64,000 nucleotides of DNA from Candidatus Latescibacterota bacterium (GTDB lineage Bacteria > Latescibacterota > UBA2968 > UBA8231): NCBI GenBank assembly GCA_965206595.1, contig OZ242214.1, positions 1,394,986-1,458,985 of the forward strand, written 5' to 3'. The notes beneath the pieces were generated by a model that was given only the letters and a program-made list of their open reading frames with translations, was not told where the DNA came from and did no database searches. Within the stretch, counting starts at the first letter, position 1. Each line of letters starts with the position of its first letter. This document shows positions 7,888-58,349 of this stretch, piece by piece. The translations under genes were made by a program, and so were the position numbers.

Positions 7888-8820
7888 CTACAGAGGGCTG
7901 GTGGTCGCCGCGGCCCCTGCCCGCTCTTCGGCCCACGCCTTGAGCGGGACGTCGTCCCAGTTCGAAGTGATCCAGTACTGGGAGGAGGGGTGGAACTCCG
8001 GCGTCTCCCCGAGGGGAGGCGACCCGGTGGCCAGCGCTCCCAGCAGCTGGCGGCGTATCGGAGAGCTGCGCGCGATCAGCTCGGGGTCCTGCTCGATGTA
8101 GTCGGTGGGCCGCAGCCAGCGGTAGTGGTAGCCGACGTGCATGATCTGGCGCGTCCTCGCCGACAGGTTGGGGCCGACGCAGTGCCAGGTCGCGGTGCGC
8201 CAGAGCACCGCGGTGCCGGGGGGAATCCTCAGCTCGACCGCGTCGTCGGGATCGACCGCGGAACCGTTCCGCAGCTCCTGCGGCCGCCGCAGGTGGCTGC
8301 CGGGCACCACCCAAAGGTTGCCGGAGTTCGACTCGCCGAGGTCGGAGAAGGCATAGAAGATCTTGACCTCCATGAACGGCAGGCGCCCGTCGAGGGAGGG
8401 GGCCTCGAACAGGTAGCTGCCGGCGAGATCGGGGTGCCAGTTGACGTTGCGGTACCCGGCCCGATGATCCTCCCCGTCGCCAAGGCCGACCCCTCCGGTT
8501 CGCATCCGGCGGGGGTAGGGCGGCCGGTAGTCGAGGTGGGAGGTGCGGATCTGGATGTTCCAGCCGATGGCGTCGACGACCAGGGGAAGGGCCTTCGGGT
8601 GATCGATCAGGTCGAGGAAAGCGTCGTGCTGGGCGAGGGCGTTGCGGACGGCAAAAGGCTCTTCGGGACCGAGGCCGGTCGATTCCCGGAGACGGGCGGC
8701 CACCTCGTCGACCGCTTCGAGCAGGCGGCCGACTTCGTACGGCTCGAGGAAGTCGTCGAGGATGACGTACCCCTTCTCCTCGAAGTCCCGCTGCTGCTCT
8801 GCGGTCATGGCGATGGCCAT
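7888..8820 (-). CDS. Phytanoyl-CoA dioxygenase (PhyH) family Fe(II)/2-oxoglutarate-dependent oxygenase
   Basis: 310 aa; N-terminal TAEQQRDFEEKGYVILDDFL, H-x-D (NWHPD), distal His (TWHCVGPN) and Arg. Confidence 0.85.
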   Translation of the reverse strand: MAIAMTAEQQRDFEEKGYVILDDFLEPYEVGRLLEAVDEVAARLRESTGLGPEEPFAVRNALAQHDAFLDLIDHPKALPLVVDAIGWNIQIRTSHLDYRPPYPRRMRTGGVGLGDGEDHRAGYRNVNWHPDLAGSYLFEAPSLDGRLPFMEVKIFYAFSDLGESNSGNLWVVPGSHLRRPQELRNGSAVDPDDAVELRIPPGTAVLWRTATWHCVGPNLSARTRQIMHVGYHYRWLRPTDYIEQDPELIARSSPIRRQLLGALATGSPPLGETPEFHPSSQYWITSNWDDVPLKAWAEERAGAAATTSPL

Positions 8821-12869: not shown

Positions 12870-13884
12870 TAGTGTCCTGTCGTATAATTAACTGTACAAA
12901 CAATTGAAGGTGCCGTAGGTTTCTCTTATCCCCCTTCTGAAAGGAGAGACCTATGGTGACGGGGCGTCCATTACCGCCGTTAGAGCTGAGTCCGTCGGAC
13001 CGGGAACGATTGGAATCGATGGCCAAATCCCGGAGCCTTTCCCACGGGTTGGTGCGGCGAGCCGAGATTAGTCTGCTGGCCGCAGAAGGCGGGCCCAATG
13101 AAGCCGTCGCCGCCGCCGTGGGTGTGACGCGTGCTACGGCTTTCTCGAAAACGGGCAAGTGGCGCCGGCGCTTTCTCGAAAACGGGCTCCAGGGCTTGCA
13201 TATGGTTTGCAGCCCCATCGACACAAGCACTTCACGCTTTCCACCGATCCTTTCTTTGTCGACAAAGTACGGGATATCGTCGGCTTATACCTGAATCCCC
13301 CCGAGCACGCCCTGGTGCTGTGCGTCGACGAGAAGAGCCGGATCCAGGCGTTGGAACGAAGTCAGCCCATGCTGCCCCTGGGACTGGGATACGTGGAAGG
13401 GATTACGCACGATTACAAGCGCCATGGCACCACCACCCTGTTTGCCGCCTTGGACGTAGCCACCGGGGAAGTGATGACCCAGTGCAAGCCCCGTCATCGT
13501 CACCAGGAGTTCCTTCAGTTCCTGCGCCACATCGAGGCCCACGTCCCCGCTGACCTCGATATTCATCTCGTCGTCGACAACTACGCCACGCATAAGCATG
13601 CCAAGGTCAAGCGATGGTTGGCACGGCGTCCCCGATTTCACGTTCACTACACCCCCACCTATGCTTCGTGGCTCAATCAGGTGGAGATCTGGTTCAATAT
13701 CCTTACCCGCCAGGCGGTTCGCCGGGACTCGTTCCGCAAGGTGTCGGAGCTCATCGAGCGCATCGAACGCTACACGGCCAAATGGAACGCCAACGCACAC
13801 CCTTTCGTGTGGACGGCTACGGCCGATTCCATCCTCGCGAAAATCAAGAGACTTTGCGAACGAATCTCTGCGACACAACACTAG
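12870..13884 (+). mobile_element. IS630/Tc1-mariner-family insertion sequence, copy 1 (degenerate)
   Basis: Ends shared with copy 2 begin right after a TA on each side (TA|GTGTCCTGTCG ... CGACACAACAC|TA); imperfect 11-bp terminal inverted repeats; about 157 bp shorter than copy 2. Confidence 0.8.
12953..13884 (+). pseudogene. IS630-family DDE transposase, copy 1, inactivated by ~170-bp internal deletion plus a 12-15-bp duplication
   Basis: Split into ORFs 12953..13294 and 13159..13884; relative to copy 2 the segment encoding [16 protein letters not shown]...HRIWRTYGL is missing and CTTTCTCGAAAACGG is duplicated; otherwise near-identical at DNA level. Confidence 0.8.
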
Positions 13885-20359: not shown

Positions 20360-21226
20360 TCAGGCGACCACTATCGGGCGGTGGAGCAGGGTCTGGCTCT
20401 CGTAGATGGAGCCGCTGCGTCCCGGGCGGATGACAGCCGGCTCGGGCACCGCGGGAACGTCGGTGTGTCGCGGCTTGGCGATCGGCTTCCCCCTGATGAT
20501 GCAGGCGTCGAACGCGGCCATGTCCTCCGGCGGGTTCTTGATGGGCCAGGCATCGGCGGCGCAGTACTGCAGCAGGTAGAGACGGCGCGACCGGGTCTGG
20601 GAAGTGTTGGGTGCCGAGGCGTGCAGCATGGTGCCGTGGTGGATGGTGATCCCGCCCGCCTTCACCTCGACCGGGACCGCGTTCTCCGCGCCGAATTCGT
20701 TATCGGTGACGGCCCCGACGAAGAACTCCTCCTGGTAGTGGTTGTAGATCGGCCCCCGGTGCGATCCGGGGACGACCAGCAGGCAGCCGTTCTCCAGGTT
20801 CATGTCGTCGATGGCCACTCCCACGGCCAGGATGTCTTCGTTGGTGCGCGCGCAGAAGGCGTAGTCCTGGTGCCATTCGACCGGGCTGCCGAACCCGGCC
20901 GACTTCATGTTGAGCTTGCCGCTGAAGTGGCGGATGTCCGGGCCGACCAGCTGCGCGACCTTGTCGAGAATGCGGCTGTCGCGGAAGATGCGGTCGTACG
21001 CCGGGTGCAGCTCCTCGGGATGCTTGAGGCGCCGCAGGCGCGGGGAAGCGGGGCTGTGCCCGGGCTCGAGGTCGAAGTCCTCGTCGTTCTCCGTCACCTG
21101 CCGGGAGCGCTCGACGAACTCGTCGGTTACCCGCCTGAGCTCCTCGATCTCCGGGCCTGAGAAAACCCCTTCCACGCTGGTGTAACCCCGGGCGTGGTAG
21201 GCTTCGACCTGTTCCTGTGTCAGCAT
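20360..21226 (-). CDS. PhyH-family Fe(II)/2OG dioxygenase
   Basis: Canonical N-terminus MLTQEQVEAYHARGY; H-x-D (EWHQDYAF), distal His/Arg (TIHHGTMLHASAPNTSQTRSR). Confidence 0.9.
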   Translation of the reverse strand: MLTQEQVEAYHARGYTSVEGVFSGPEIEELRRVTDEFVERSRQVTENDEDFDLEPGHSPASPRLRRLKHPEELHPAYDRIFRDSRILDKVAQLVGPDIRHFSGKLNMKSAGFGSPVEWHQDYAFCARTNEDILAVGVAIDDMNLENGCLLVVPGSHRGPIYNHYQEEFFVGAVTDNEFGAENAVPVEVKAGGITIHHGTMLHASAPNTSQTRSRRLYLLQYCAADAWPIKNPPEDMAAFDACIIRGKPIAKPRHTDVPAVPEPAVIRPGRSGSIYESQTLLHRPIVVA

Positions 21227-37769: not shown

Positions 37770-38522
37770 CTACGCCACCCGCTGGCCGCCCCGCAGCACC
37801 GGCAGCCGATCCCCCCAGGGCTCGCCGGTGCGCACCAGGACCGGGTCGGGCACGTGGTACTGGGGCACATAAGCCCGCCGCGGCCGGTCCCTGGAGGTAT
37901 TGGGACCGCTGCGATGCAACAGCAGCGATGAGAACACCGCCACCTGCCCGGCGCGCATCTCCACCGGAATGGCCCCGTCGTCATCCACCTGGGCGTTCTT
38001 GCCCCCGTAGCGTTGCTCGTCCTCCTCTTCCGTTACGTGCTCGAGCACGCCGCGCCTGTGGGATCCGGGAATGATCCATATGCAGCCGTTCTCGAGGTCG
38101 GAGTCGGAGATCGCCGTCCAGCAGGTGATGTACTCCAGCGGCTCCGTCTTCGTATAGCCTGAATCCTGGTGCCAGTCGAAAACCTTGCCGAGGCCTCCGG
38201 GCATTTTCGTCGTCGCCTGGTTGTAGTAGAGATCCACATCCTCCCCGATTAGGAGGCGGCAGGCTTCCAGGTAAACCGGCTTCCTGAGGAAATCGAGCGC
38301 CACCGGGCTCAGGGTGTGAAACTGGGAGAACGAGCGGCGTCCGCGAGCGCTTTCCACCGCCGGGGCATCCCCAAGGGCCTCCGCCTCGCGCACGTGCTCG
38401 GCGTATACCCGGTCCATCTCCGCCGCCATCGGTTCGAGCTCCCCAGGAGAAAAAACCACGCCGGTAACGAAGTAGCCCAGCTCGCGAAACTGCTGCACTT
38501 CTTCAGTGCTGATCAGGGTCAT
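37770..38522 (-). CDS. PhyH-family Fe(II)/2OG dioxygenase
   Basis: H-x-D (DWHQDSGY), distal His/Arg (LLLHRSGPNTSRDRPR). Start at ATG 38522 (MTLISTEEVQQFRELGYF); ORF track opens at GTG 38561. Confidence 0.8.
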   Translation of the reverse strand: MTLISTEEVQQFRELGYFVTGVVFSPGELEPMAAEMDRVYAEHVREAEALGDAPAVESARGRRSFSQFHTLSPVALDFLRKPVYLEACRLLIGEDVDLYYNQATTKMPGGLGKVFDWHQDSGYTKTEPLEYITCWTAISDSDLENGCIWIIPGSHRRGVLEHVTEEEDEQRYGGKNAQVDDDGAIPVEMRAGQVAVFSSLLLHRSGPNTSRDRPRRAYVPQYHVPDPVLVRTGEPWGDRLPVLRGGQRVA

Positions 38523-38583
38523 GGGGCACCGCTTTTTGAGAGGTTGCTTCCGGTTGGCCACCCGGGCCCGGAGGAGAAAGAGG

Positions 38584-39314: not shown

Positions 39315-40398
39315 TTACTTGAGCAGTGTCATGCTGCGGGTCTCGATGCCGGCAGGAGACTGCAGACGGTAGAAGTAGGTGCCGCTGGAGAGGCCGTCGC
39401 CGCTGAGCTCGACCCGGTAGGTTCCCGCCTGGCGAAAGTCGCTGACAAGGGTGCCGATGTGCTGGCCGAGGGCATTGTAGAGATTGAGCCGGACCTCTCC
39501 CGGCTGCGGGAGCGAGTACCTGATGGTAGTGGACGGGTTCCAGGGATTGGGATAGTTCTGAACCAGGTAGAAATCGGATGGCGCCCGGAGATCGCGCTTT
39601 CGGAAGCGACTACCGTCTCCACGCCCTGAACGAGGATTCCGAGGTGGTCGAGAAAGGTCCAGCCGGCCATCCAGAGATTGTCGGCGTCGAAGGCCCCGCG
39701 ATATGCGACTGCCTGGAAGAAACCGTCATCCGGGGGCGGCACGGCGCCTGACAGGGCCGGGCTGCCGGACATCGGGCGGGGGTCGAGGGCGCCGTCGTTG
39801 GTGCGGGAGATGCCGGTCAGCTGCACGGTACTGTAGCGATCGCCGAGCCCGCGGATGTAGACGTACTTCCCTTCCATTACAGTTGCGCCGGAAACGTGAG
39901 ACATGGCTTCGGCGGCATTGCCGCTGCCGGCGCGGGAGATGTCCTCGGAGCTGATCGCATCGCTTACCGCTGGCGCCTTCTGCCGTTCCTTGAGCAGCGA
40001 TGCCTCGGTGTTTCGCAGGGCGCGAACCTCGACTACCACCTCGTCGACGGCGATCGCTTCCGAGGTCAGGACGAGATCGAGGCGCAGAACCTCGCCGGCT
40101 GCGACCACTGCCTCGGTTACGGTCACGGTGTTGTAGCCGATCATCGAGCTTTCGATCTCGTAGGTGCCGGCCGGGACGTCGGGGATCCTGAAGTCCCCCT
40201 CGATTCCGGTCACCGTGCCGAACCCGGTCTCCTTGAGGTAGACGTACGCACCGACGAGGGGTCTCCCGTTTCCCCGTCGATGATGTCGCCTGCTACAATA
40301 CCGGTTTGTGCGCCCGCTTCCGAGGGCCCGGCGATGGGAAGCAGGGCGCCGAGAAGCAGTGCGCCGAATACCTGGGTCGATCTGTGATTCTGCCGCAT
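39315..40398 (-). pseudogene. Secreted CarbopepD_reg-domain protein with T9SS (Por) C-terminal sorting domain, interrupted by two frameshifts
   Basis: Signal peptide MRQNHRSTQVFGALLLGALLPIAG (GGGAGAAAA RBS) in ORF 40210..40437; CarbopepD_reg/plug-like region in ORF 39329..40213 (GIEGDFRIPDVPAGTYEI...GKYVYIRGLGDRYSTVQLTGI); a third frame ends with a type-A T9SS CTD (FYLVQNYPNPWNPSTTIRYSLPQPGEVRLNLYNALGQ...GTYFYRLQSPAGIETRSMTLLK, stop 39315-39317). Shifts near 40240 and 39580. Confidence 0.55.
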
Positions 40399-40592: not shown

Positions 40593-42602
40593 TCAGTAGG
40601 TAAGCGGAAAGGAGGCTACCGCGGTATCGGTTCCGGAGTCCGCCCTCACGGTAAGGCGCAGCAGGTAAATGCCCGGGGGCAGGAGTCCGCCCGTTTTACG
40701 TCCGCGGCCGTCCCATGAAGCCCAAAAGCGGCCGCTGCCCCTGCCCGAGGTCTCCAGGTCTGCCACCCGCCTGCCCCTCAGGTCCAGGACCTCCAGGCTC
40801 ATGGGCACGTTTCCGGCAAGATTGACCAGCTCGTATTGGATTTCGAGGGCCTCGTTGACCCCGTCCCCGTCGGGAGTGAGGGCCGTGAGGGACAGTTTCT
40901 GGATCGAGCGCTTACGGGGGTTCCGGGCTCTGACGGTCAGCCCCTGCCCATCTGTCCGCGGGTCGACGTCTCCCGGGGCAATCCGATGGCGGACTTCTCT
41001 CGGCCTGGTGCTGTCGAACACCCTGCCGGAGAACAGGGTAGACGCCTGAAAGACCTCGGCGCGAAAGTCGATCTCGATCGGTTCACCGGTGAGCTGAATA
41101 TCGATGAAGGGCAGGCGCACCACGGTGTATCGGCCGTTCCAGGGTTCCACCTCGTACTCGTCGCTGCCGAGGGTTCTCGCTCCGATCCGCACCTCGTCGA
41201 CGGACGGGGCGACCGGCACGTCGAACTGAATGCTGTCAAACCCGGAGTCCTCCTCGGAGACGACGGCAAACAGTTTGTAGGTGAAGGAAGTCACCTCCCC
41301 GAAGCGGGTCTCCGGTGGGACGATTTCAGCGGTGATGAGCGAGGCTACCGGGGGTTGGGTGATTTCGAATTGGAGATAGTCCATTCTGCCGCCGGTGTTG
41401 CTGGTCGAGCGGAAATCGATGGCGAACTGCGCGAACCGGTGCGGCAGGGTGGTGGCGAGATCCAGCCGGCCTGACGCAAACTCCGCGGGAGCAGTCCAGA
41501 ATTTCCAGTTCTGGCTGTCGGGGGTGATGCCGGCCGCTTCCCCTCCTTCGAGACGTCCGTAGGCTTGACGGGTCAATTCCACCCCGCCGGCGTCGAAACG
41601 CGACCTTCGATCTCCCCGGAAAGTATTGCGCCAGTATTGGTGCGGGTCTTCGTCGGTGCCGCTGCGGGCGCTGATCCTTACACTGGCTCCGGGGGATGCT
41701 TCTCCGTTCCAGTACACGGCGTCGAGGCTTGCCCGGCCGCCCAGGTCGATTATGCCCGAGATGTAACCGGCTTCCGGGACGTACCCGTCGCCGTAGATCT
41801 CGAACTCGGCGATCTCCCACAGGTCCAACGGGGCGGTTAGCACGACCGCCTGAACCGCGCGGCCGATTTCAAGTTCGAACTCGGCACTAGTGTTCTCGAA
41901 GTCCTCGAACAGGACGTCGAATTCGAGGTGCCCGACCTGAAGCGGAAGCTCGCGCGTCGGGCCGCCGAACTTGAACCGATTCAGCAGTCCCGGCACTTCT
42001 CCCGGGCGAATGGGACTGCCCTCGGCGACACCTAGTGTCAGCTCGGGTATGAAGCGGTCGTGGGCGTGATCGGGACGGGTTCCGAAGCGGATGCGGCTGA
42101 TGTTGTAGGGATTGCCGAGATTGAAGACGAGGATCTTGTAGTCGACAACGCAGTCGCAGCCGGGATCGTACAGGGCCATGGCGTTGTAGCTGCCCGATTG
42201 CCCCTCCGAAGACCTCTTTCCCGCGGAGCCTTCGTACACGCTCGCGGGATTGCCGTCGAACAGATTGTCGATCTGGGGTTCGTTCTGCAGCCGTCCCGCG
42301 GTGGTGGAAACGCGGACGGAGCCGCCTTTGTCCCGTATCGAGGGGGTCAGGTTTTCGTCGGGAGAAACAAACACCGGGGCGATGGCGCCGTTCTCGAAAG
42401 CGATCAGTCGAGTGGAGCCGAACTCACTGGCGGCGGCCTCCTCCCATGTGATCTGGACCAGATCGACCCCTTCCGGGGCAGGAAGGTCCTGCCCGCCGAC
42501 GCGGACAATCGTCAGTGCCCCAGGGTCCCGGGATGACCACAGGAAAACCGAGAGTGCGACAATGAGTGCAGTTGCCGGGTGTTTCAACCCAACCCCGCGC
42601 AT
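40593..42602 (-). CDS. Secreted protein with discoidin-like N-terminal region and T9SS type-B/FlgD-Ig-like C-terminal domain
   Basis: Start at internal ATG 42602 (MRGVGLKHPATALIVALSVFLWSS signal peptide); DNLFDGNPASVYEG resembles F5/8 type C; C-terminus LTPDGDGVNEALEIQYEL...RFWASWDGRGRKTGGLLPPGIYLLRLTV matches gliding-motility/T9SS type-B-like domains. Confidence 0.55.
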   Translation of the reverse strand: MRGVGLKHPATALIVALSVFLWSSRDPGALTIVRVGGQDLPAPEGVDLVQITWEEAAASEFGSTRLIAFENGAIAPVFVSPDENLTPSIRDKGGSVRVSTTAGRLQNEPQIDNLFDGNPASVYEGSAGKRSSEGQSGSYNAMALYDPGCDCVVDYKILVFNLGNPYNISRIRFGTRPDHAHDRFIPELTLGVAEGSPIRPGEVPGLLNRFKFGGPTRELPLQVGHLEFDVLFEDFENTSAEFELEIGRAVQAVVLTAPLDLWEIAEFEIYGDGYVPEAGYISGIIDLGGRASLDAVYWNGEASPGASVRISARSGTDEDPHQYWRNTFRGDRRSRFDAGGVELTRQAYGRLEGGEAAGITPDSQNWKFWTAPAEFASGRLDLATTLPHRFAQFAIDFRSTSNTGGRMDYLQFEITQPPVASLITAEIVPPETRFGEVTSFTYKLFAVVSEEDSGFDSIQFDVPVAPSVDEVRIGARTLGSDEYEVEPWNGRYTVVRLPFIDIQLTGEPIEIDFRAEVFQASTLFSGRVFDSTRPREVRHRIAPGDVDPRTDGQGLTVRARNPRKRSIQKLSLTALTPDGDGVNEALEIQYELVNLAGNVPMSLEVLDLRGRRVADLETSGRGSGRFWASWDGRGRKTGGLLPPGIYLLRLTVRADSGTDTAVASFPLTY

Positions 42603-42696
42603 CTTTGCATAAAGACCCCGGAAACCGCAAGCCGTGCACTGTTGCATTGGAGCGGGACGGGGGGGTTGCAAACCATTGGGCTGGCCGGCGAAGGTG

Positions 42697-44439
42697 TCAT
42701 TCGTACAGCTCGACCGCCGTTTCCCCGCGGGCAAAGCGCTGCGCCGTCTGCGCGGCCGACTGGGAGCCGATGCTGCGGCGGGCGTCCGTCGCCCAGCGGG
42801 CCAGGCCGACCAGAAGCTGGCCCCGGGCCGGATGCCCTGCGCAGTGCTCCCACTCGTCGAACACGGTGCGCAGCGTGTGCAGCAGCGACCAGCCGTTGTC
42901 GTCCTTGAGAATCGTCAGGCCGAGCTCGGACAGCAGCCGGTTCCCGGAGTGACCGCTGTTGAGGTAGTCTCGGGTCATGCGGCCGATGTCGCGGATCCGG
43001 ATCGACTCGACGGCCTCCAGGATAGCCTGCAGGGCCCCGTCGGCGGCGGGGTTCTCTCCCTGTTCCGGTTCGGAGCCTCGCCCCGGACGCTCGGTAAGTT
43101 TCCTGGTCGAGATGTTGAGCCAGCGGTTGTCGAAGAAGCGCCAGGCCGCGTGATAGCAGGCGCGCGCGGCAATGGCGAAACCGGCCTGTTTCTCAATTGA
43201 CCTGAGGCTCGAACCCAGAGCCATTTCCCATGCCAGGTCGTGCCAGCCAGGGCTCATGCCGACCGGCGTGCGCGCCATGCGGTCGGCCGCCAGCAGCACC
43301 ATGGTCGTGGCGATCCGGTCTATCGAGGCCCCCTGTCTCAAGACCTCGGAAACGGCCCCGAAGGTCGTGGCGATATCCCCGCTCACCAGGGCATCGGAAA
43401 ATGCGTTCTCGTCGAAATCCCCGCCTCCGCCCTGCTTCGATGCCTCTTCGATCACTGCATCGGCGGCGGTGAACAGATCCATGGCCTCGCGCAGCACGTC
43501 CATCGGAACGGGCCGGCCGCGGCCGAGCATCTTTCCGGCGAGGTTGCAGACCAGCTCCTCGCTCAGATCCCATCCGAACTCGTCGAGCAGCTCGGCGAGA
43601 TGGGTGAGGTTCCTCAGGTTGTCCTGTTGCCCCAGGAAGTGGGGCAGCACCGCGCACTCCAGCAGCAGGGGAACGATGGCGCCGTCGTGACCCCGCAGGC
43701 GGCGCGCGGTTATCAGGCACTTCTCGATCCCCTCAGGCATCTTGTCGGAAGCGAAGAAGCGAACCCATCCGGCGAGCTTCGGCCAGTCGACCGGCGGCGG
43801 CAGAGGTTCCACCTGAGGGCGGTCCCCCGCCGTTCCCGCGGCGGCCGAGGCTGCCATCATCAGGGGGATCAGGCGGTCCTCCGGCTCGTAGCGCCGCGCC
43901 ACGTTCAACCCGTTGACGAACTGGGCGACGTCGTGGCCCCCGTTCTCGTGCCGGTGGGTGGTGATGTGCCCGCCCATGTGGCGCACGATCAGCTCCAGGG
44001 TTTCCCGCTCAGACACACCCTTGGCCAGCAGGATGGCGATCGCCTTCGACAGCGTCCAGCTGTCGCCGTTGTTGAGACCCTCCTGCAGCAGCAGGAAGTG
44101 GGCGTCGGGGCGCTTCGAGCCGCCACTGGCCACGTCGACGAAGACAGCCCCGTCCCGCACCTGCACCGGGAAGGTGTCGAGATCGTCGCAGCCCCCCGTA
44201 AAGCAGCCACCGCCCGCCATGTCGTAGCTGTACCCGTGCCAGTCGCAGGTGAGGACGCCTCCGCGGGCGATCCCCCTGGTGAGGGGGTAGCCCATGTGGG
44301 GACATTGGTTGTCGGTCGCATACAGCTCGCCGTCGTGAAGGAACAGGGCGACGCTGTGCCCATCCACCCGCACCGCTTTCGGCTTTCCCTCCTCGACCTC
44401 GGCGAGGTCGGCAACCCTCGCGAAGCTGTCCTTCATCAT
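42697..44439 (-). CDS. Rieske [2Fe-2S]-domain fusion protein, paralog 1 (N-terminal Rieske + ~450-aa domain of unknown function)
   Basis: Rieske ligand boxes CPHMGYPLTRG and CDWHGYSYDM about 17 residues apart; no family recognised for the C-terminal domain; conserved blocks shared with paralog 2 (e.g. LLAADRMARTPV). Confidence 0.8.
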   Translation of the reverse strand: MMKDSFARVADLAEVEEGKPKAVRVDGHSVALFLHDGELYATDNQCPHMGYPLTRGIARGGVLTCDWHGYSYDMAGGGCFTGGCDDLDTFPVQVRDGAVFVDVASGGSKRPDAHFLLLQEGLNNGDSWTLSKAIAILLAKGVSERETLELIVRHMGGHITTHRHENGGHDVAQFVNGLNVARRYEPEDRLIPLMMAASAAAGTAGDRPQVEPLPPPVDWPKLAGWVRFFASDKMPEGIEKCLITARRLRGHDGAIVPLLLECAVLPHFLGQQDNLRNLTHLAELLDEFGWDLSEELVCNLAGKMLGRGRPVPMDVLREAMDLFTAADAVIEEASKQGGGGDFDENAFSDALVSGDIATTFGAVSEVLRQGASIDRIATTMVLLAADRMARTPVGMSPGWHDLAWEMALGSSLRSIEKQAGFAIAARACYHAAWRFFDNRWLNISTRKLTERPGRGSEPEQGENPAADGALQAILEAVESIRIRDIGRMTRDYLNSGHSGNRLLSELGLTILKDDNGWSLLHTLRTVFDEWEHCAGHPARGQLLVGLARWATDARRSIGSQSAAQTAQRFARGETAVELYE

Positions 44440-44449
44440 GATCTCCTCT

Positions 44450-46216
44450 TCAATCGTCGAAGACGCCTACGGTGGTGCGGCCCTCGGCGAACCGCATCGC
44501 CGTGGTCGTGGCCGATCCGCTCTCCGCGTTGGTGCGGATGTCGGTGGCGTAGCGGGCGAGGGCGACCAGCAGCTGGGGCCTCGAGGGATGTCCGCACCCG
44601 GCCGCAGGGTCACCGGAGCCGCCCGCCTCCCACTCCTCCGAGATGGTGCGCAGCGTGGGCAGCAGCTGCGGCCCTGTGTCGTTCCAGAGAATCAGTCGCC
44701 CTAGCTCATGGAGAAGCCGACTGCCGTCGAAACCGGCATGCAGATAGGCGTGGACCTGGTCGCCGACTTGGGCGACCTGCAGGGTTTCCACCGAGCCGGT
44801 GATGGCGGCGATGCCGGCCTCCTCGGTTGCCCAGGCGTGCTCCCGCGCCGGCTCCGGGGTTGCGCTCAGGGGGTGCCTTGAGATGTTGAGCCAGCGATCG
44901 TCGAACAGCTGCCAGGCGAGGTGAAACAGACCCATGACGGCGACGCGATCTCCAGCTTCGGCCTGAGCGGTTCGCAGCGACCGGGCGAGATTCAGTTCCT
45001 GGGTCAGACACCCCCAGCCGGCATCGACGTTGACGGGAGTTCGGGCCATGCGGTCGGCGGCGAGCAGGACAAAGGTGGTGATCAGGCGTTCCAGGCGGAC
45101 CCCGGAGGCCAGGGCCGTGGCGACCCCGTCGAAAGAGCGATCGATGTCGACGCTCAACAGCGCTTCAACCAGGGCATCTTCGTCGTATTCGATCCGGGTG
45201 CGATCGCTTTCCGCGGCGCTGTCGATCGCCTGTCTGAGGGAGATCATCTTGTCGATGGCGTCCCGCTTGAACAGCTGCGGCTCGCCCCGCCGCTGGCCGA
45301 CGGTCTTGGAGCCGAGATTCAGGGTGAGCTCGGAGGCCGCTTCCCAGCCGAAGGATTGGGTCAGCTCGGTCAGGTACCCCAGGGTCTGGAGATTGTCGCT
45401 GAATCCGAGAAAGCCGGGCTGCGCGGCGCATTCGTACAGCAGCGGAAGGATGCGGCCCTCGTCCCCCTTGAGCCGCGCGGTGAAAAGGCACCTCTCGATG
45501 CGGTTATCCTGGCCGTTGCGGGAGAAGAGCCGCACCCAACTGGCGATGCGGTCCCAGGTGACCGGCTCCGGCAGGACGACCACCTCGAGGCGCTCCGACG
45601 CTTCCCCGGCGACGCAGGTGGCCGCGGTGGCCAGCGCCATCAGGCGGTCCTCGCCGTCGTAGCGGCGGCCGATGGCTATCCCGTTGACGAAGCGGGCGAG
45701 ATCGACGCCGGCGCCGGCGCCCCGCGAGCTGGCAACGTGTCTGCCGAAATGCCTGAGGATGACGGCGACGATGTCGCTTTCCGGTACCCGTCCGCGCAGC
45801 ATCAGGGCCATGGCCTTGGAGATCGTCCAGCGGTCCTCGTGCAGTAGTCCTTCACGCAGCAGCCGCAGGTGCTGCTCCCTGCGGCGGTAGGCCCCATCTC
45901 CCGGGCGAATCCAGACCTCCTCGCCGCGAACCTCTACGGGAAACACCTCGAGGTCGTCGCACATGTTGTTGAAACAGCCGCCCCCCTCGAGGTCGAAGCG
46001 GCGTCCGTGCCAGTCGCAGGTGAGAACGCCGTTGCGGATCGCCCCGCGCGTCAGCGGGTATCCCATGTGGGGACACTGGTTGTCGGTGGCGTAAATGCGG
46101 CCCTCGACGTTGAATAGGGCGATGCTGCGCCCTTGGCCGACCCGGACGGCCTTGGCGCCTCCCGGTTCTATCTCTTTCAAAGCCGCTACTCTGGTCCAAC
46201 CGTTTGCCGTTGCCAT
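44450..46216 (-). CDS. Rieske [2Fe-2S]-domain fusion protein, paralog 2 (tandem duplicate)
   Basis: Same architecture: CPHMGYPLTRG ... CDWHGRRFDLEGGGCF, collinear C-terminal domain (TTFVLLAADRMARTPV); 10 bp upstream of paralog 1 on the same strand. Confidence 0.8.
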   Translation of the reverse strand: MATANGWTRVAALKEIEPGGAKAVRVGQGRSIALFNVEGRIYATDNQCPHMGYPLTRGAIRNGVLTCDWHGRRFDLEGGGCFNNMCDDLEVFPVEVRGEEVWIRPGDGAYRRREQHLRLLREGLLHEDRWTISKAMALMLRGRVPESDIVAVILRHFGRHVASSRGAGAGVDLARFVNGIAIGRRYDGEDRLMALATAATCVAGEASERLEVVVLPEPVTWDRIASWVRLFSRNGQDNRIERCLFTARLKGDEGRILPLLYECAAQPGFLGFSDNLQTLGYLTELTQSFGWEAASELTLNLGSKTVGQRRGEPQLFKRDAIDKMISLRQAIDSAAESDRTRIEYDEDALVEALLSVDIDRSFDGVATALASGVRLERLITTFVLLAADRMARTPVNVDAGWGCLTQELNLARSLRTAQAEAGDRVAVMGLFHLAWQLFDDRWLNISRHPLSATPEPAREHAWATEEAGIAAITGSVETLQVAQVGDQVHAYLHAGFDGSRLLHELGRLILWNDTGPQLLPTLRTISEEWEAGGSGDPAAGCGHPSRPQLLVALARYATDIRTNAESGSATTTAMRFAEGRTTVGVFDD

Positions 46217-46263
46217 TTCCTATTTCGATTTGTCGAGGCAGTGCCGGGATTGCCCGCCGGGGA

Positions 46264-47172
46264 TCACCGGGCCGCCTTGACCCCGGGCATGGCCGGGACG
46301 TAGGACTGCCGGCGCCGATTTCCCGATGTCCATGCGGCGTCGGCGGGGTGGTGCTCCTCAAGCCATTCCCGCAGCGGGGCTTCGCCCTTTTCTGGCGCGT
46401 ACGCGCTGTTGTTGCTCGGGTTGTCGCGGAGCAGCTGCCGCCGGATCGAGTCGAGCCCTGGGTAGAGGTGTTGGACGGTCATGTCGTCCTTGGGCAGCAG
46501 CCAGCGGTAGCTGTAGCCCATCATCAGCATCTTGCGCGTCTCGTGCCAGCTGTTGACGCTGCGGCTGTGCCAGATGCGGCGGTCGATGATGACGGAGGTG
46601 CCGGGCGGCACGCACAGGGGAATCGCCCCCTCCGGGCTGGAGCGGCCGTCTTCGGGAACGTCGATTTCGTCGTGCAGGTGCGATCCCGGGACGATAAGTG
46701 TGTTGCCGCGGCCGGTCCCGGACATGTCGCTGACGAAGAAGAAGACTTTGATGGAAAGCCGTGGGCGCGGCGTCGCCTCGATTTCGTCGTTAACCCGCAT
46801 GCTGTCCTGGTGCCAGGCCACGGTGGGGCCCGATCGCCGCCGGTCCGGGTCGCCCGGGGGGGTCACCAACAGGCCGGAGTGGTAGATGCAGATGTTCCAG
46901 CCGAGTATTCCCCAGACCTTGGGGAAGGTGGTCTCCCAGTCGATCAGGTCGAGAAACAGGGGGTTCTGGCCGATGATGTCGGGAATGTCGATGGGGTCGT
47001 GCGGCCCGAATCCATAGGCGCGCTGCTTTGCGGCGACCAGGCGGTCACAGGCATGCCGGAGGGCCTCGGTGCGGTCGGACGGCAGGGCGTCCGGAACGAC
47101 GAGGTAGCCCTGTTCCTCGAACTCGGCGCGCTCCGAATCGGTCAGGCAATGGGCCAGGCAGGAGGGAGTCAT
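46264..47172 (-). CDS. PhyH-family Fe(II)/2OG dioxygenase
   Basis: N-terminal LTDSERAEFEEQGYLVVPD, H-x-D (AWHQDSMR), distal His/Arg (IWHSRSVNSWHETRK); 47 bp upstream of Rieske paralog 2. Confidence 0.85.
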   Translation of the reverse strand: MTPSCLAHCLTDSERAEFEEQGYLVVPDALPSDRTEALRHACDRLVAAKQRAYGFGPHDPIDIPDIIGQNPLFLDLIDWETTFPKVWGILGWNICIYHSGLLVTPPGDPDRRRSGPTVAWHQDSMRVNDEIEATPRPRLSIKVFFFVSDMSGTGRGNTLIVPGSHLHDEIDVPEDGRSSPEGAIPLCVPPGTSVIIDRRIWHSRSVNSWHETRKMLMMGYSYRWLLPKDDMTVQHLYPGLDSIRRQLLRDNPSNNSAYAPEKGEAPLREWLEEHHPADAAWTSGNRRRQSYVPAMPGVKAAR

Positions 47173-47409: not shown

Positions 47410-48581
47410 TAGTGTCCTGTCGTATAATTAACTGTACAAACAATTGAAGGTGCCGTAGGTTTCTCTTATCCCCTTTCTGAAAGGAGAGACCTATGGTGAC
47501 GGGGCGTCCATTACCGCCGTTAGAGCTGAGTCCGTCGGACCGGGAACGATTGGAATCGATGGCCAAATCCCGGAGCCTTTCCCACGGGTTGGTGCGGCGA
47601 GCCGAGATTAGTCTGCTGGCCGCAGAAGGCTGGCCCAATGAAGCCGTCGCCGCCGCCGTGGGTGTGACGCGTGCTACGGTCGGCAAGTGGCGCCGGCGCT
47701 TTCTCGAAAACGGGCTCCCGGGCTTGCATGATGAGCTGCGCTCAGGGGCGCCACGATCGAGTACGGATGAACAGGTAGCCGAGGTGGTATACAAGACCCT
47801 GAAGACCAAGCCCAAAGACGAAACACAGTGGTCGGTGCGCTCCATGGGCGAAGAAACCGGCTTGACCAAGGACGCGGTTCATCGCATTTGGCGCACGTAT
47901 GGTTTGCAGCCCCATCGACACAAGCACTTCACGCTTTCCACCGATCCTTTCTTTGTCGACAAAGTACGGGATATCGTCGGCTTGTACCTGAATCCCCCCG
48001 AGCACGCCCTGGTGCTGTGCGTCGACGAGAAGAGCCGGATCCAGGCGTTGGAACGAAGTCAGCCCATGCTGCCCCTGGGACTGGGATACGTGGAAGGGAT
48101 TACGCACGATTACAAGCGCCATGGCACCACCACCCTGTTTGCCGCCTTGGACGTAGCCACCGGGGAAGTGATGACCCAGTGCAAGCCCCGTCATCGTCAC
48201 CAGGAGTTCCTTCAGTTCCTGCGCCACATCGAGGCCCACGTCCCCGCTGACCTCGATATTCATCTCGTCGTCGACAACTACGCCACGCATAAGCATGCCA
48301 AGGTCAAGCGATGGTTGGCACGGCGTCCCCGATTTCACGTTCACTACACCCCCACCTATGCTTCGTGGCTCAATCAGGTGGAGATCTGGTTCAATATCCT
48401 TACCCGCCAGGCGGTTCGCCGGGACTCGTTCCGCAAGGTGTCGGAGCTCATCGAGCGCATCGAACGCTACACGGCCAAATGGAACGCCAACGCACACCCT
48501 TTCGTGTGGACGGCTACGGCCGATTCCATCCTCGCGAAAATCAAGAGACTTTGCGAACGAATCTCTGCGACACAACACTAG
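47410..48581 (+). mobile_element. IS630/Tc1-mariner-family insertion sequence, copy 2 (intact)
   Basis: About 1.17 kb; TA at both junctions; same imperfect 11-bp terminal inverted repeats as copy 1; single intact transposase ORF. Confidence 0.85.
47493..48581 (+). CDS. IS630-family DDE transposase (intact, 362 aa)
   Basis: N-terminal helix-turn-helix-like region, DDE-type core ([15 protein letters not shown] ... [19 protein letters not shown] ... [12 protein letters not shown]); RBS GAAAGGAGAG. Confidence 0.9.
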
Positions 48582-56580: not shown

Positions 56581-57450
56581 CTAAGCGAAATACATCTCCC
56601 CGGAAAAAGGCAGGGGTTGCGAAGGCCGTTCGTAGTGGATCTGTTTCGGAGTCCTTTCGAGGGCCGCTGCCCACTGGTCGCGCCAGTCCTCGTAGCGGGT
56701 TTCCGACCCCGGGTCGCGACGGCTGCGAACCACGCTGCTGGGCCACTCCGGCCGCGGTGAGGGCTCCCCGGCCTTCTGGTAGCGCAGATCCATGCTCCAG
56801 CGCACGCCGTCGGTGTTGTTGGGGCCGGAGCCGTGCGGGGTCAGCTTGTGCACGAACAGCACGTCCCCCTTCTTCATCGGCAGCGTCACCTTCTCGACAT
56901 CGGGCAGGTCGTGGTGGTAGGTCCAGTAGACCATGCGGTTGCGGTGCACGCGGGGCAGAACCTGGAGGCAGCCGTTCTCCTCGGTGGCGTTGACGAGGGG
57001 CACCCAGACCGTCACCTGCAGGATCCCGGCAGCTTCCTGGGTGGTGAATACGGCGTCCTGATGGAAGATGACGTCCGTCGACGGCATCTTCGGGCGCACG
57101 TGAGAAACCGCGTTGCAGCTGATTTCGGGACCGATAAAGGGCTCGATGAGATCGACGAGGTTCTCGTTGCGCAGGAACTCGAAGGTGGCGCGGCGGCGAG
57201 TGACGCCGATATCGGGACAGCCGTCGACTTTCTTGGAGTCCTCGCCAAGCCGGGCAAGTCGGGTTTCGAATGGCTCCTCTGCGTGGAGATCGTCGATCTC
57301 CCCGCGGGCGTGAAGGTCCCTGGCGATCCCGTCGACGATGGCGATGTGGTCCTGGATGAGGGGTTCGAAATCGGCGTCGGTAAGTCCCCCTTCGACAACG
57401 ACGTACCCTTCTTCCTTGAAGAACTCGAGATGTTCGTCGGTGGTTTTCAT
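56581..57450 (-). CDS. PhyH-family Fe(II)/2OG dioxygenase
   Basis: Start at internal ATG 57450 (MKTTDEHLEFFKEEGYVVVEG); H-x-D (IFHQDAVF), distal His/Arg (KLTPHGSGPNNTDGVRWS). Confidence 0.85.
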   Translation of the reverse strand: MKTTDEHLEFFKEEGYVVVEGGLTDADFEPLIQDHIAIVDGIARDLHARGEIDDLHAEEPFETRLARLGEDSKKVDGCPDIGVTRRRATFEFLRNENLVDLIEPFIGPEISCNAVSHVRPKMPSTDVIFHQDAVFTTQEAAGILQVTVWVPLVNATEENGCLQVLPRVHRNRMVYWTYHHDLPDVEKVTLPMKKGDVLFVHKLTPHGSGPNNTDGVRWSMDLRYQKAGEPSPRPEWPSSVVRSRRDPGSETRYEDWRDQWAAALERTPKQIHYERPSQPLPFSGEMYFA

Positions 57451-57563
57451 GTCGGCTCCGGCGTTTCTGTGAACTCGAGAATTGTCAGGCTTGGATTGTT
57501 GGCAAACCATCATCTGAAAATAGCGAAATTGCGTTCTGCGCCACCAAACCGAAGGAGCATACG

Positions 57564-58349
57564 ATGCCAGATCCACATTCCCTGGAAGGAAAGAAAGCAC
57601 TCGTGACCGGCGGCCGGCGCCGCATCGGCAGGGGGATCGCCCTGTCGCTGGCGGAGGCGGGCTGCGATGTCGGAATCAACGACCTCGAAGAAGACGCCGA
57701 CGCCCTGGAGACCCTGCGCCTGATCGACGAGCGGGGCCGCAAAGCCGCGTTCTTTGCCGGCGACATCTCCAACAGCGCCCGGGTCGAGAGCATGTTCGCC
57801 GCATTCCTCGAACGCTTCGGCCGCATCGACATACTGGTGAACAACCCCTACGGCGGCACCGGACAGCCGTTTCTCGAGCTCACCGAGGAGAACTGGGATG
57901 CCAATCTCGATATCGGCCTGAAGGGATTCTTCCTGTGCAGCCAGCAGGCTGCCCGGGCAATGGTGGAACAGGGGGACGGGGGCTGCATCGTCAGCACCTC
58001 CTCCGTTCACGGGGTGCGCGCCTGGAAGGAAGACACCCCCTACGGCGCTGCCAAGGCCGGCGTCCTGCGCCTCACCGAGAGCATGGCCGTCGACCTCGGC
58101 GAGCACGGTATCCGCTGCAACGCCATCATGCCCGGCCACATGGACACGACCCACACGATCGGCACGCCCCCGCCGGAACGGGGAAGCATCGAGGAGGATC
58201 TGTACGCTTCGGTGCCTCTGCGCCGGCGCGGCACCCCGGAGGATATCGGCCGCGCTGTCGCCTTTCTCTGCTCTCCTGCCGCAGCCTGCATAACCGGGGT
58301 ATCGCTGGCGGTCGACGGCGGCCTGCTGGCAACTGCACCGGGAGACTAG
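57564..58349 (+). CDS. Short-chain dehydrogenase/reductase (SDR) family oxidoreductase
   Basis: KKALVTGGRRRIGRGIA (TGxxxGxG), NNPYGG, catalytic YGAAK; RBS GAAGGAG. Confidence 0.9.
   Translation: MPDPHSLEGKKALVTGGRRRIGRGIALSLAEAGCDVGINDLEEDADALETLRLIDERGRKAAFFAGDISNSARVESMFAAFLERFGRIDILVNNPYGGTGQPFLELTEENWDANLDIGLKGFFLCSQQAARAMVEQGDGGCIVSTSSVHGVRAWKEDTPYGAAKAGVLRLTESMAVDLGEHGIRCNAIMPGHMDTTHTIGTPPPERGSIEEDLYASVPLRRRGTPEDIGRAVAFLCSPAAACITGVSLAVDGGLLATAPGD

Follow-up and report, generated by a model that had tools for sequence, protein, structure and literature searches.

What could be the function of two adjacent bacterial genes that each join a Rieske [2Fe-2S] domain to a large C-terminal domain outside any recognised sequence family? 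This question is raised by a locus in a 64,000-nucleotide stretch of DNA from a Candidatus Latescibacterota bacterium (contig OZ242214.1, positions 1,394,986 to 1,458,985), called the window hereafter, in which positions are counted from the first nucleotide. An earlier note, made from the sequence alone, had drawn attention to the two genes, Rieske-A and Rieske-B (A and B in the following), and had placed them within a four-gene system. Their layout is as follows.

44450-46216, minus strand: Rieske-A, 588 aa, with the Rieske domain at residues ~1-108 (~45893-46216) and a predicted all-alpha C-terminal domain (C-domain) at residues ~109-588 (44453-45892).
42697-44439, minus strand: Rieske-B, 580 aa, with the Rieske domain at ~44125-44439, the C-domain at 42700-44124 and the same architecture as A.
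44440-44449, minus strand: A-B junction of 10 bp, consisting of the TGA stop codon of A, then AGAGGAGATC, then the ATG of B.

Within the junction, the AGAGGAG motif found just ahead of the ATG corresponds to a ribosome-binding site for B.

The N-terminal part of the two proteins is readily assigned. The full-length proteins A and B share 46% identity (BLASTP, E=5e-172) and, as the earlier note held, are adjacent paralogs with an intact Rieske [2Fe-2S] domain each, in which the CPHMGYPLTRG...CDWHG boxes are present. The Pfam Rieske model (PF00355) gives scores of 60.5 and, for B, 61.2 bits against a cutoff of 20.3, the match being limited to residues ~7-104. The cluster ligands C48, H50, C67 and H70 (CxH...CxxH) are kept without exception in the A-type (79) and B-type (76) sequences compared, as well as across the wider superfamily described below. 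The domain has the beta-sandwich fold of Rieske proteins, and the closest sequence and structure matches of residues 1-108 are stand-alone Rieske ferredoxins of oxygenase systems and NirD. Neither A nor B has a signal peptide. An extra pair of invariant cysteines, C81/C86 (GGGCFxxxCDD), is located 11-16 residues past the second Rieske box, the codons being within ~45959-45976 for A. These cysteines are kept at the same positions in A, in B and in near relatives, are replaced by T/A in a distant branch, and differ in position from the bc1-type disulfide.

The C-domain (~110-588) of both paralogs matches no recognised family in Pfam, NCBIfam or PDB sequences, in line with what the sequence alone had led the earlier note to say. 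PDB sequences gave no match either by single sequence or by profile (two different profiles), and when 28 diverse family members were compared with Pfam at E<=10, no model recurred besides the Rieske ones, the remainder being single weak matches. Structure prediction is more informative. An AlphaFold2 model built from a 26-sequence alignment (predicted local distance difference test score, 87; predicted template modelling score, 0.83) consists of the Rieske beta domain followed by about 22-24 helices. The view that the C-domain is not the catalytic domain of a classical Rieske oxygenase is upheld, as there is no Pfam or NCBIfam match past residue ~105 and the region is predicted entirely helical; structures of Rieske oxygenases align over ~110-124 residues only. 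Rieske matches dominated a Foldseek comparison of the full-length model with the PDB, from which no information on the C-domain was gained. The sole whole-domain fold relatives of the predicted C-domain are enzymes of the BTG13/PaD type, and a ~100-residue MgsA_C-like subdomain is found inside it. In the predicted model, the C-domain is a ~470-residue all-alpha domain with the BTG13/PaD (DUF4243) fold. BTG13, GedK, PaD and BruN are DUF4243 enzymes, namely all-alpha non-heme-iron dioxygenases with a site comprising four His residues plus one carboxylated Lys (PMC12173810, PMC11371914, PMC11575538).

How widespread is the pair, and are its two members linked? With the C-domain alone as query, at least 592 clusters formed at 90% identity were retrieved. 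Almost all of them are 575-595 aa long with an N-terminal Rieske domain, and the names they bear are limited to 'Rieske (2Fe-2S) protein' or 'nitrite reductase/ring-hydroxylating ferredoxin subunit'. When each species was represented by one genome, scanning yielded 281 encoding stretches; all locus counts given here refer to the best 80 of them, for which gene positions come from tblastn and independent gene calls. These loci belong to Poribacteria (45), Acidobacteriota (8), Latescibacterota (7), Dehalococcoidia (5), Gemmatimonadota (5), unclassified bacteria (9) and one 'Clostridia' metagenome-assembled genome (MAG). Occurrence of the pair extends to at least five bacterial phyla. In 75 of the 80 loci, the A-type gene has a B-type gene after it on the same strand; the five exceptions include contig-end cuts. 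The A-type proteins are 56-86% identical to A of the window and the B-type proteins 59-89% identical to B, whereas cross-type identity is 43-50%. The distance from A to B is below 225 bp in 50 loci, with 0.4-6.5 kb inserted in the remainder. The independent gene calls confirm the pair, and in one locus (L082) A and B overlap by 4 bp.

For the 79 A-type and the 76 B-type sequences, pairwise identity averages 66% among A, 67% among B and 47% from one type to the other. The pairwise-identity matrices of A and B correlate with r=0.95 (r=0.79 for distant pairs); therefore, A and B have been inherited as a unit. The conserved unit is the A/B two-gene module, not a four-gene set. The closest locus, L001, belongs to a Latescibacterota MAG (86% identity for A, 89% for B). 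Beyond it, A of the window is 74% identical to Dehalococcoidia copies versus 58-66% to other Latescibacterota and Gemmatimonadota copies. Sequence comparison suggests that the pair moved horizontally between phyla sharing a habitat. From the isolate names in record titles, sponge or coral holobionts appear to be the origin of many of the metagenomes, and soil and groundwater of some. When A and B of the window are considered together, identities are 74-77% with the Dehalococcoidia loci L002-L004 versus 58-66% with the Latescibacterota loci L009, L011 and L039.

The distribution of invariant residues bears on function. In total, 106 positions are invariant in both A and B types. In the C-domain, they include four histidines common to both paralogs (H116, H156, H432 and H543), and K134, E241, C243, C263, D388, R389, E407, R415, D513, E528, D559, R555 and R561 are also invariant in both. 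An exhaustive profile search gave 407 clusters at 50% identity, of which only ~3 are close, namely P0039 of A type and P0122 and P0123 of B type. The others are distant relatives, most of them also Rieske fusions with lengths of 540-600 aa, whose homology to the C-domain of A/B has an hhalign probability of 99.8%. P0184 and P0161, the two distant relatives whose genomic neighbourhood could be retrieved, each occur as a single gene and not as a tandem pair. Some distant relatives carry a further domain: P0218 (843 aa) is fused to an N-terminal extracytoplasmic function (ECF) sigma-70 factor and P0194 (734 aa) to a C-terminal adenylate/guanylate cyclase, while Rieske-less relatives are fused to WD40 or 3-keto-disaccharide-hydrolase-like domains (the fusion entries listed are P0218, P0194, P0231 and P0247).

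The reading that we favour, tentatively and at slightly less than an even chance, is that A and B form a cytoplasmic, heteromeric, Rieske-fed redox enzyme, probably an oxygenase, with a BTG13-like helical domain. A and B would be ancient paralogs, inherited together and co-transcribed, which probably assemble into a cytoplasmic hetero-oligomer. Each subunit has at its N-terminus a Rieske [2Fe-2S] cluster of ferredoxin type, with C48, H50, C67 and H70 as ligands. This cluster would receive electrons from a donor encoded elsewhere and hand them on to a catalytic pocket within the helical domain, possibly across the A/B interface as in Rieske oxygenases. This putative pocket may be lined by residues that are invariant in both paralogs, namely H116, H156, H432, H543, E241, D388, E407, D513, D559 and several arginines; the invariant histidines and carboxylates plausibly provide a lineage-specific metal site. 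O2 or another oxidant would then be activated on a small-molecule substrate, probably an anionic one, as hinted by the many invariant arginines. In this reading, the arrangement of domains, the Rieske ligands, the similarity in fold and the conservation and pairing of A and B are observed, whereas the heteromer, the metal site of the C-domain, the oxygenase chemistry and the direction in which electrons flow are inferred. A bolder proposal can be made, which we hold to be on the unlikely side: A/B would define a new class of Rieske-dependent oxygenases, in which the classical beta-rich 2-His-1-carboxylate domain gives way to a BTG13-like all-alpha scaffold whose poly-histidine metal site is lineage-specific. 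The enzyme would be an obligate hetero-oligomer, spread horizontally among uncultured phyla, many members of which are apparently sponge or coral symbionts.

Several observations weigh against the proposal of a Rieske-fed enzyme. The four histidines are kept in the A/B clade only, whereas the Rieske ligands are always kept across the superfamily. Because only K134, E241, R389, R441, D513 and R555 persist superfamily-wide, no universal catalytic site is evident. Nor is DUF4243 connected at the level of sequence: the 28 diverse members gave no PF14027 match in Pfam at E<=10, and neither 7y3w nor 8z4q was found in PDB profile searches at E<=10. The iron ligands are H63/H166/H317/H394/K397 in PaD and H63/H166/H308/H386/Kcx389 in BruN, Kcx being the carboxylated lysine (PMC12173810, PMC11371914, PMC11575538). 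The DUF4243 HxxK (carboxy-Lys) motif is absent from A/B, H543 being followed by P-x-(R/S/A) and never by Lys at +3, and the spacing of the four A/B histidines is unlike that in BruN and PaD (PMC11371914, PMC11575538). Finally, no reductase or other partner is conserved near A/B.

Could the pair then act other than as an enzyme? It can be imagined that A/B responds to redox state or O2 and transduces a signal, the Rieske domain sensing, the helical scaffold switching conformation or partners, and the A/B regulatory heterodimer acting on other proteins. Among distant relatives of the same architecture, P0218 indeed carries an ECF sigma factor and P0194 an adenylate/guanylate cyclase, but such fusions represent 2 of ~150 clusters and belong to a distant branch. 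In L083, a PilZ gene stands between A and B next to a response-regulator-cyclase gene, and same-strand ankyrin-repeat proteins are encoded 10 bp past A or just upstream of A in 32 loci; A and B themselves, however, have no output domain, and no regulator is conserved beside the pair. The universal retention of the Rieske ligands, together with the lack of a catalytic-looking residue set conserved superfamily-wide, would fit a sensor. It should, however, be noted that the 106 positions invariant in A/B, which include four His, two Cys and many acidic or Arg residues of the helical domain, are more typical of an active site, and that the sole whole-domain fold relatives are enzymes. We therefore consider a sensory role unlikely, while taking it seriously. 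Alternatively, A and B may be dedicated electron-transfer proteins, that is, Rieske ferredoxins whose helical domains merely dock to an enzyme or complex encoded elsewhere. Their Rieske domain is of the soluble ferredoxin/NirD type and the C-domain lacks the catalytic motif of any known family, but an extremely conserved 470-residue domain far exceeds docking needs, and the neighbourhood contains no conserved candidate for an acceptor enzyme. The molybdenum enzyme encoded after B in 12 loci has a twin-arginine translocation (TAT) signal and would therefore be periplasmic, whereas A/B have no signal peptide. A role limited to electron transfer is, in our opinion, quite improbable.

A further possibility, put forward in the earlier note, is that A and B act within a four-gene redox/oxygenase system that also comprises a PhyH dioxygenase and a secreted protein of a type associated with the type IX secretion system (T9SS-type). 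The features concerned, and the gene that flanks them, are the following.

46264-47172, minus strand: PhyH-family Fe(II)/2-oxoglutarate dioxygenase (PhyH1), 302 aa, 47 bp upstream of A; Pfam PhyH.
40593-42602, minus strand: predicted secreted protein, 669 aa from ATG 42602, 94 bp downstream of B.
47493-48581, plus strand: IS630-like transposase (DDE_3 and helix-turn-helix domains, Pfam), divergent, immediately upstream of PhyH.

The arrangement itself was found as described, with four co-oriented genes on the minus strand separated by 47 (PhyH-A), 10 (A-B) and 94 bp (B-secreted). Consensus scans, at background level overall, revealed no terminator-like or sigma-70-like site in the PhyH-A, A-B and B-secreted gaps. 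Moreover, the closest relative, L001, has the same gene order (PhyH-A-B-secreted-...-PhyH2), its secreted-protein homolog being 64% identical. The claim that the four genes form a conserved system nevertheless fails, since they co-occur in L001 only among the 80 loci: PhyH1 and the secreted protein are each found in 1 of the 80, and two further proteins of the window, a PMT glycosyltransferase and a membrane protein of 185 aa, likewise have homologs in L001 only. A PhyH gene is present within 10 kb in about a third of the loci, but its position varies and it is often on the opposite strand. Five Pfam-confirmed PhyH paralogs are encoded in the 64 kb of the window, so that the adjacency of PhyH to A corresponds to chance expectation. 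Furthermore, the secreted protein would be extracytoplasmic and A/B cytoplasmic. A four-gene system is therefore largely refuted by synteny, and we regard it as very improbable; PhyH and the secreted protein are lineage-specific neighbours, not components of the module. The Rieske-fed enzyme formed by A and B remains the reading that we prefer.

The flanking genes can be described further. The identity of the upstream gene was correctly recognised (PF05721, 51 bits against a cutoff of 22), although the match covers residues 113-203 only. The five PhyH paralogs are all on the minus strand (46264-47172, 37770-38561, 20360-21226, 7888-8820 and 56581-57600), and the PhyH family is strongly expanded in this genome. 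A specific association of PhyH with the pair was considered and rejected in view of this very high PhyH density. As for the secreted protein, the longest form of its open reading frame (ORF), 40593-42734, overlaps the end of B. The most plausible start is ATG 42602, from which the predicted N-terminus, MRGVGLKHPATALIVALSVFLWSS, is signal-peptide-like. The T9SS type-B-like C-terminus ascribed to this protein is less firmly supported: the CHU_C model matches there below its cutoff of 27 (23 bits, E=8.8e-5), and a FlgD_ig match (17 bits) is likewise sub-threshold. No NCBIfam model matches the protein, including the T9SS sorting models TIGR04183 and TIGR04131, and its supposed discoidin-like region has no discoidin/F5_F8 match even at E<=1.

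The upstream edge of the co-oriented block is marked by the IS630-like transposase gene. This copy is intact, and a second IS630-like (DDE_3) copy, at 12953-13881 (plus strand) of the window, is damaged: residues 136-362 are identical to those of the first and the N-terminal part is in another frame or degraded. On the other side, between the secreted protein and the 185-aa membrane protein, an ORF at 39329-40213 (minus strand) encodes a TonB-dependent receptor reduced to its N-terminal domains, CarboxypepD_reg and Plug, without the barrel. It has no counterpart in the syntenic locus L001 and is probably a gene remnant. The G+C content of the window is 57-70% in 2-kb windows, with no compositional break at the locus, and the 64 kb contain no tRNA gene and no Rfam family at the gathering threshold.

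In other genomes, the flanks of the pair vary by locus. They include polA, AmtB and PII, a TAT-exported sulfite-oxidase-type molybdenum enzyme, Sel1, WD40, FGE-sulfatase, ATP sulfurylase, alpha/beta hydrolase, RND pumps, insertion sequence elements and toxin-antitoxin genes. The molybdenum enzyme, AmtB/PII, FGE-sulfatase, an SHMT-like protein, ATP sulfurylase, polA and alpha/beta hydrolase, among others, were considered as candidates for a general partner and rejected, none of them being general. Three kinds of neighbours deserve mention. The sulfite-oxidase-family molybdoenzyme with a TAT signal (Oxidored_molyb and Mo-co_dimer) is encoded ~35 bp after B on the same strand in 12 loci of Gemmatimonadota/Latescibacterota type (for instance L039:13617-14912), with a PhyH gene just after it on the opposite strand. 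A family of ankyrin-repeat proteins (~400-440 aa, C-terminal repeats) is encoded next to the pair, on the same strand, in 32 of the 80 loci, which belong to Poribacteria and Dehalococcoidia. The gene either precedes A by 96-674 bp or stands between the two Rieske genes, its start being 10 bp past the stop codon of A (L002:13680-14999 is representative; L008, L015, L033, L052-L080 and others). The ankyrin protein may be a third component in those lineages; the module of the window has no such gene. Lastly, the PilZ gene between A and B in L083 (9800-10561) belongs to an Acidobacteriota-like locus, in which the response-regulator-cyclase gene is adjacent.

Unusual oxidative chemistry comes from Rieske oxygenases and also from the BTG13-type dioxygenases, which were discovered recently. 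A/B represents a natural Rieske/BTG13-like fusion, duplicated into an obligate-looking pair and retaining about 60-74% identity between phyla. Literature searches gave no description of the Rieske-fusion A/B family, for which no source provides a functional name, and a full-text search returned no paper mentioning DUF4243 together with Rieske. As far as these searches show, both the Rieske plus BTG13-like architecture and the conserved A/B pairing are undescribed. The lineages in which the family is concentrated (Poribacteria, Latescibacterota, Dehalococcoidia, Gemmatimonadota and Acidobacteriota MAGs) have almost no experimental biochemistry, and a compact, expressible two-gene target would give direct access to a function of those organisms. 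The family is robust, widely conserved and experimentally tractable; if it were a sensor after all, it would constitute an unusual Rieske-based signalling module.

Comparison with known systems helps to situate A/B. With BphA3/BphF, the NDO ferredoxin, CarAc, T4moC and NirD, the likeness lies in the CxH...CxxH ligands. However, these ferredoxins and NirD are stand-alone proteins of ~100-110 aa, whereas the Rieske domain of A/B is fused to a 470-aa domain and contains the extra cysteine pair C81, C86. With DUF4243 (PF14027, 'questin oxidase-like'), the C-domain has in common an all-alpha fold of about 22 helices, but its identity with BTG13, GedK, PaD and BruN is just 9-11%. The C-domain has the fold of DUF4243, and neither its profile nor its 4-His + Kcx/HxxK ligand set. 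The substrates of BTG13, GedK, PaD and BruN are hydroquinones, made by a partner reductase or dithionite (PMC12173810, PMC11371914, PMC11575538). The chemistry expected of a DUF4243 member is the cleavage of a C-C bond in a hydroquinone, dependent on Fe and O2. Moreover, DUF4243 proteins belong mostly to fungal and plant secondary metabolism, whereas A and B are bacterial, fused to a Rieske domain, arranged as a paralog pair and endowed with an MgsA_C-like subdomain. Identity with the alpha subunit of Rieske non-heme-iron oxygenases was rejected, as A and B are without the Ring_hydroxyl_A/PaO-type 2-His-1-carboxylate catalytic domain. Nevertheless, A and B resemble alpha subunits such as NdoB (naphthalene dioxygenase), DdmC (dicamba monooxygenase) and SxtT in that a single polypeptide carries an N-terminal Rieske domain and, after it, a C-terminal domain of larger size, and the transfer of electrons from cluster to active site across subunit interfaces, as in those enzymes, may apply to A/B too.

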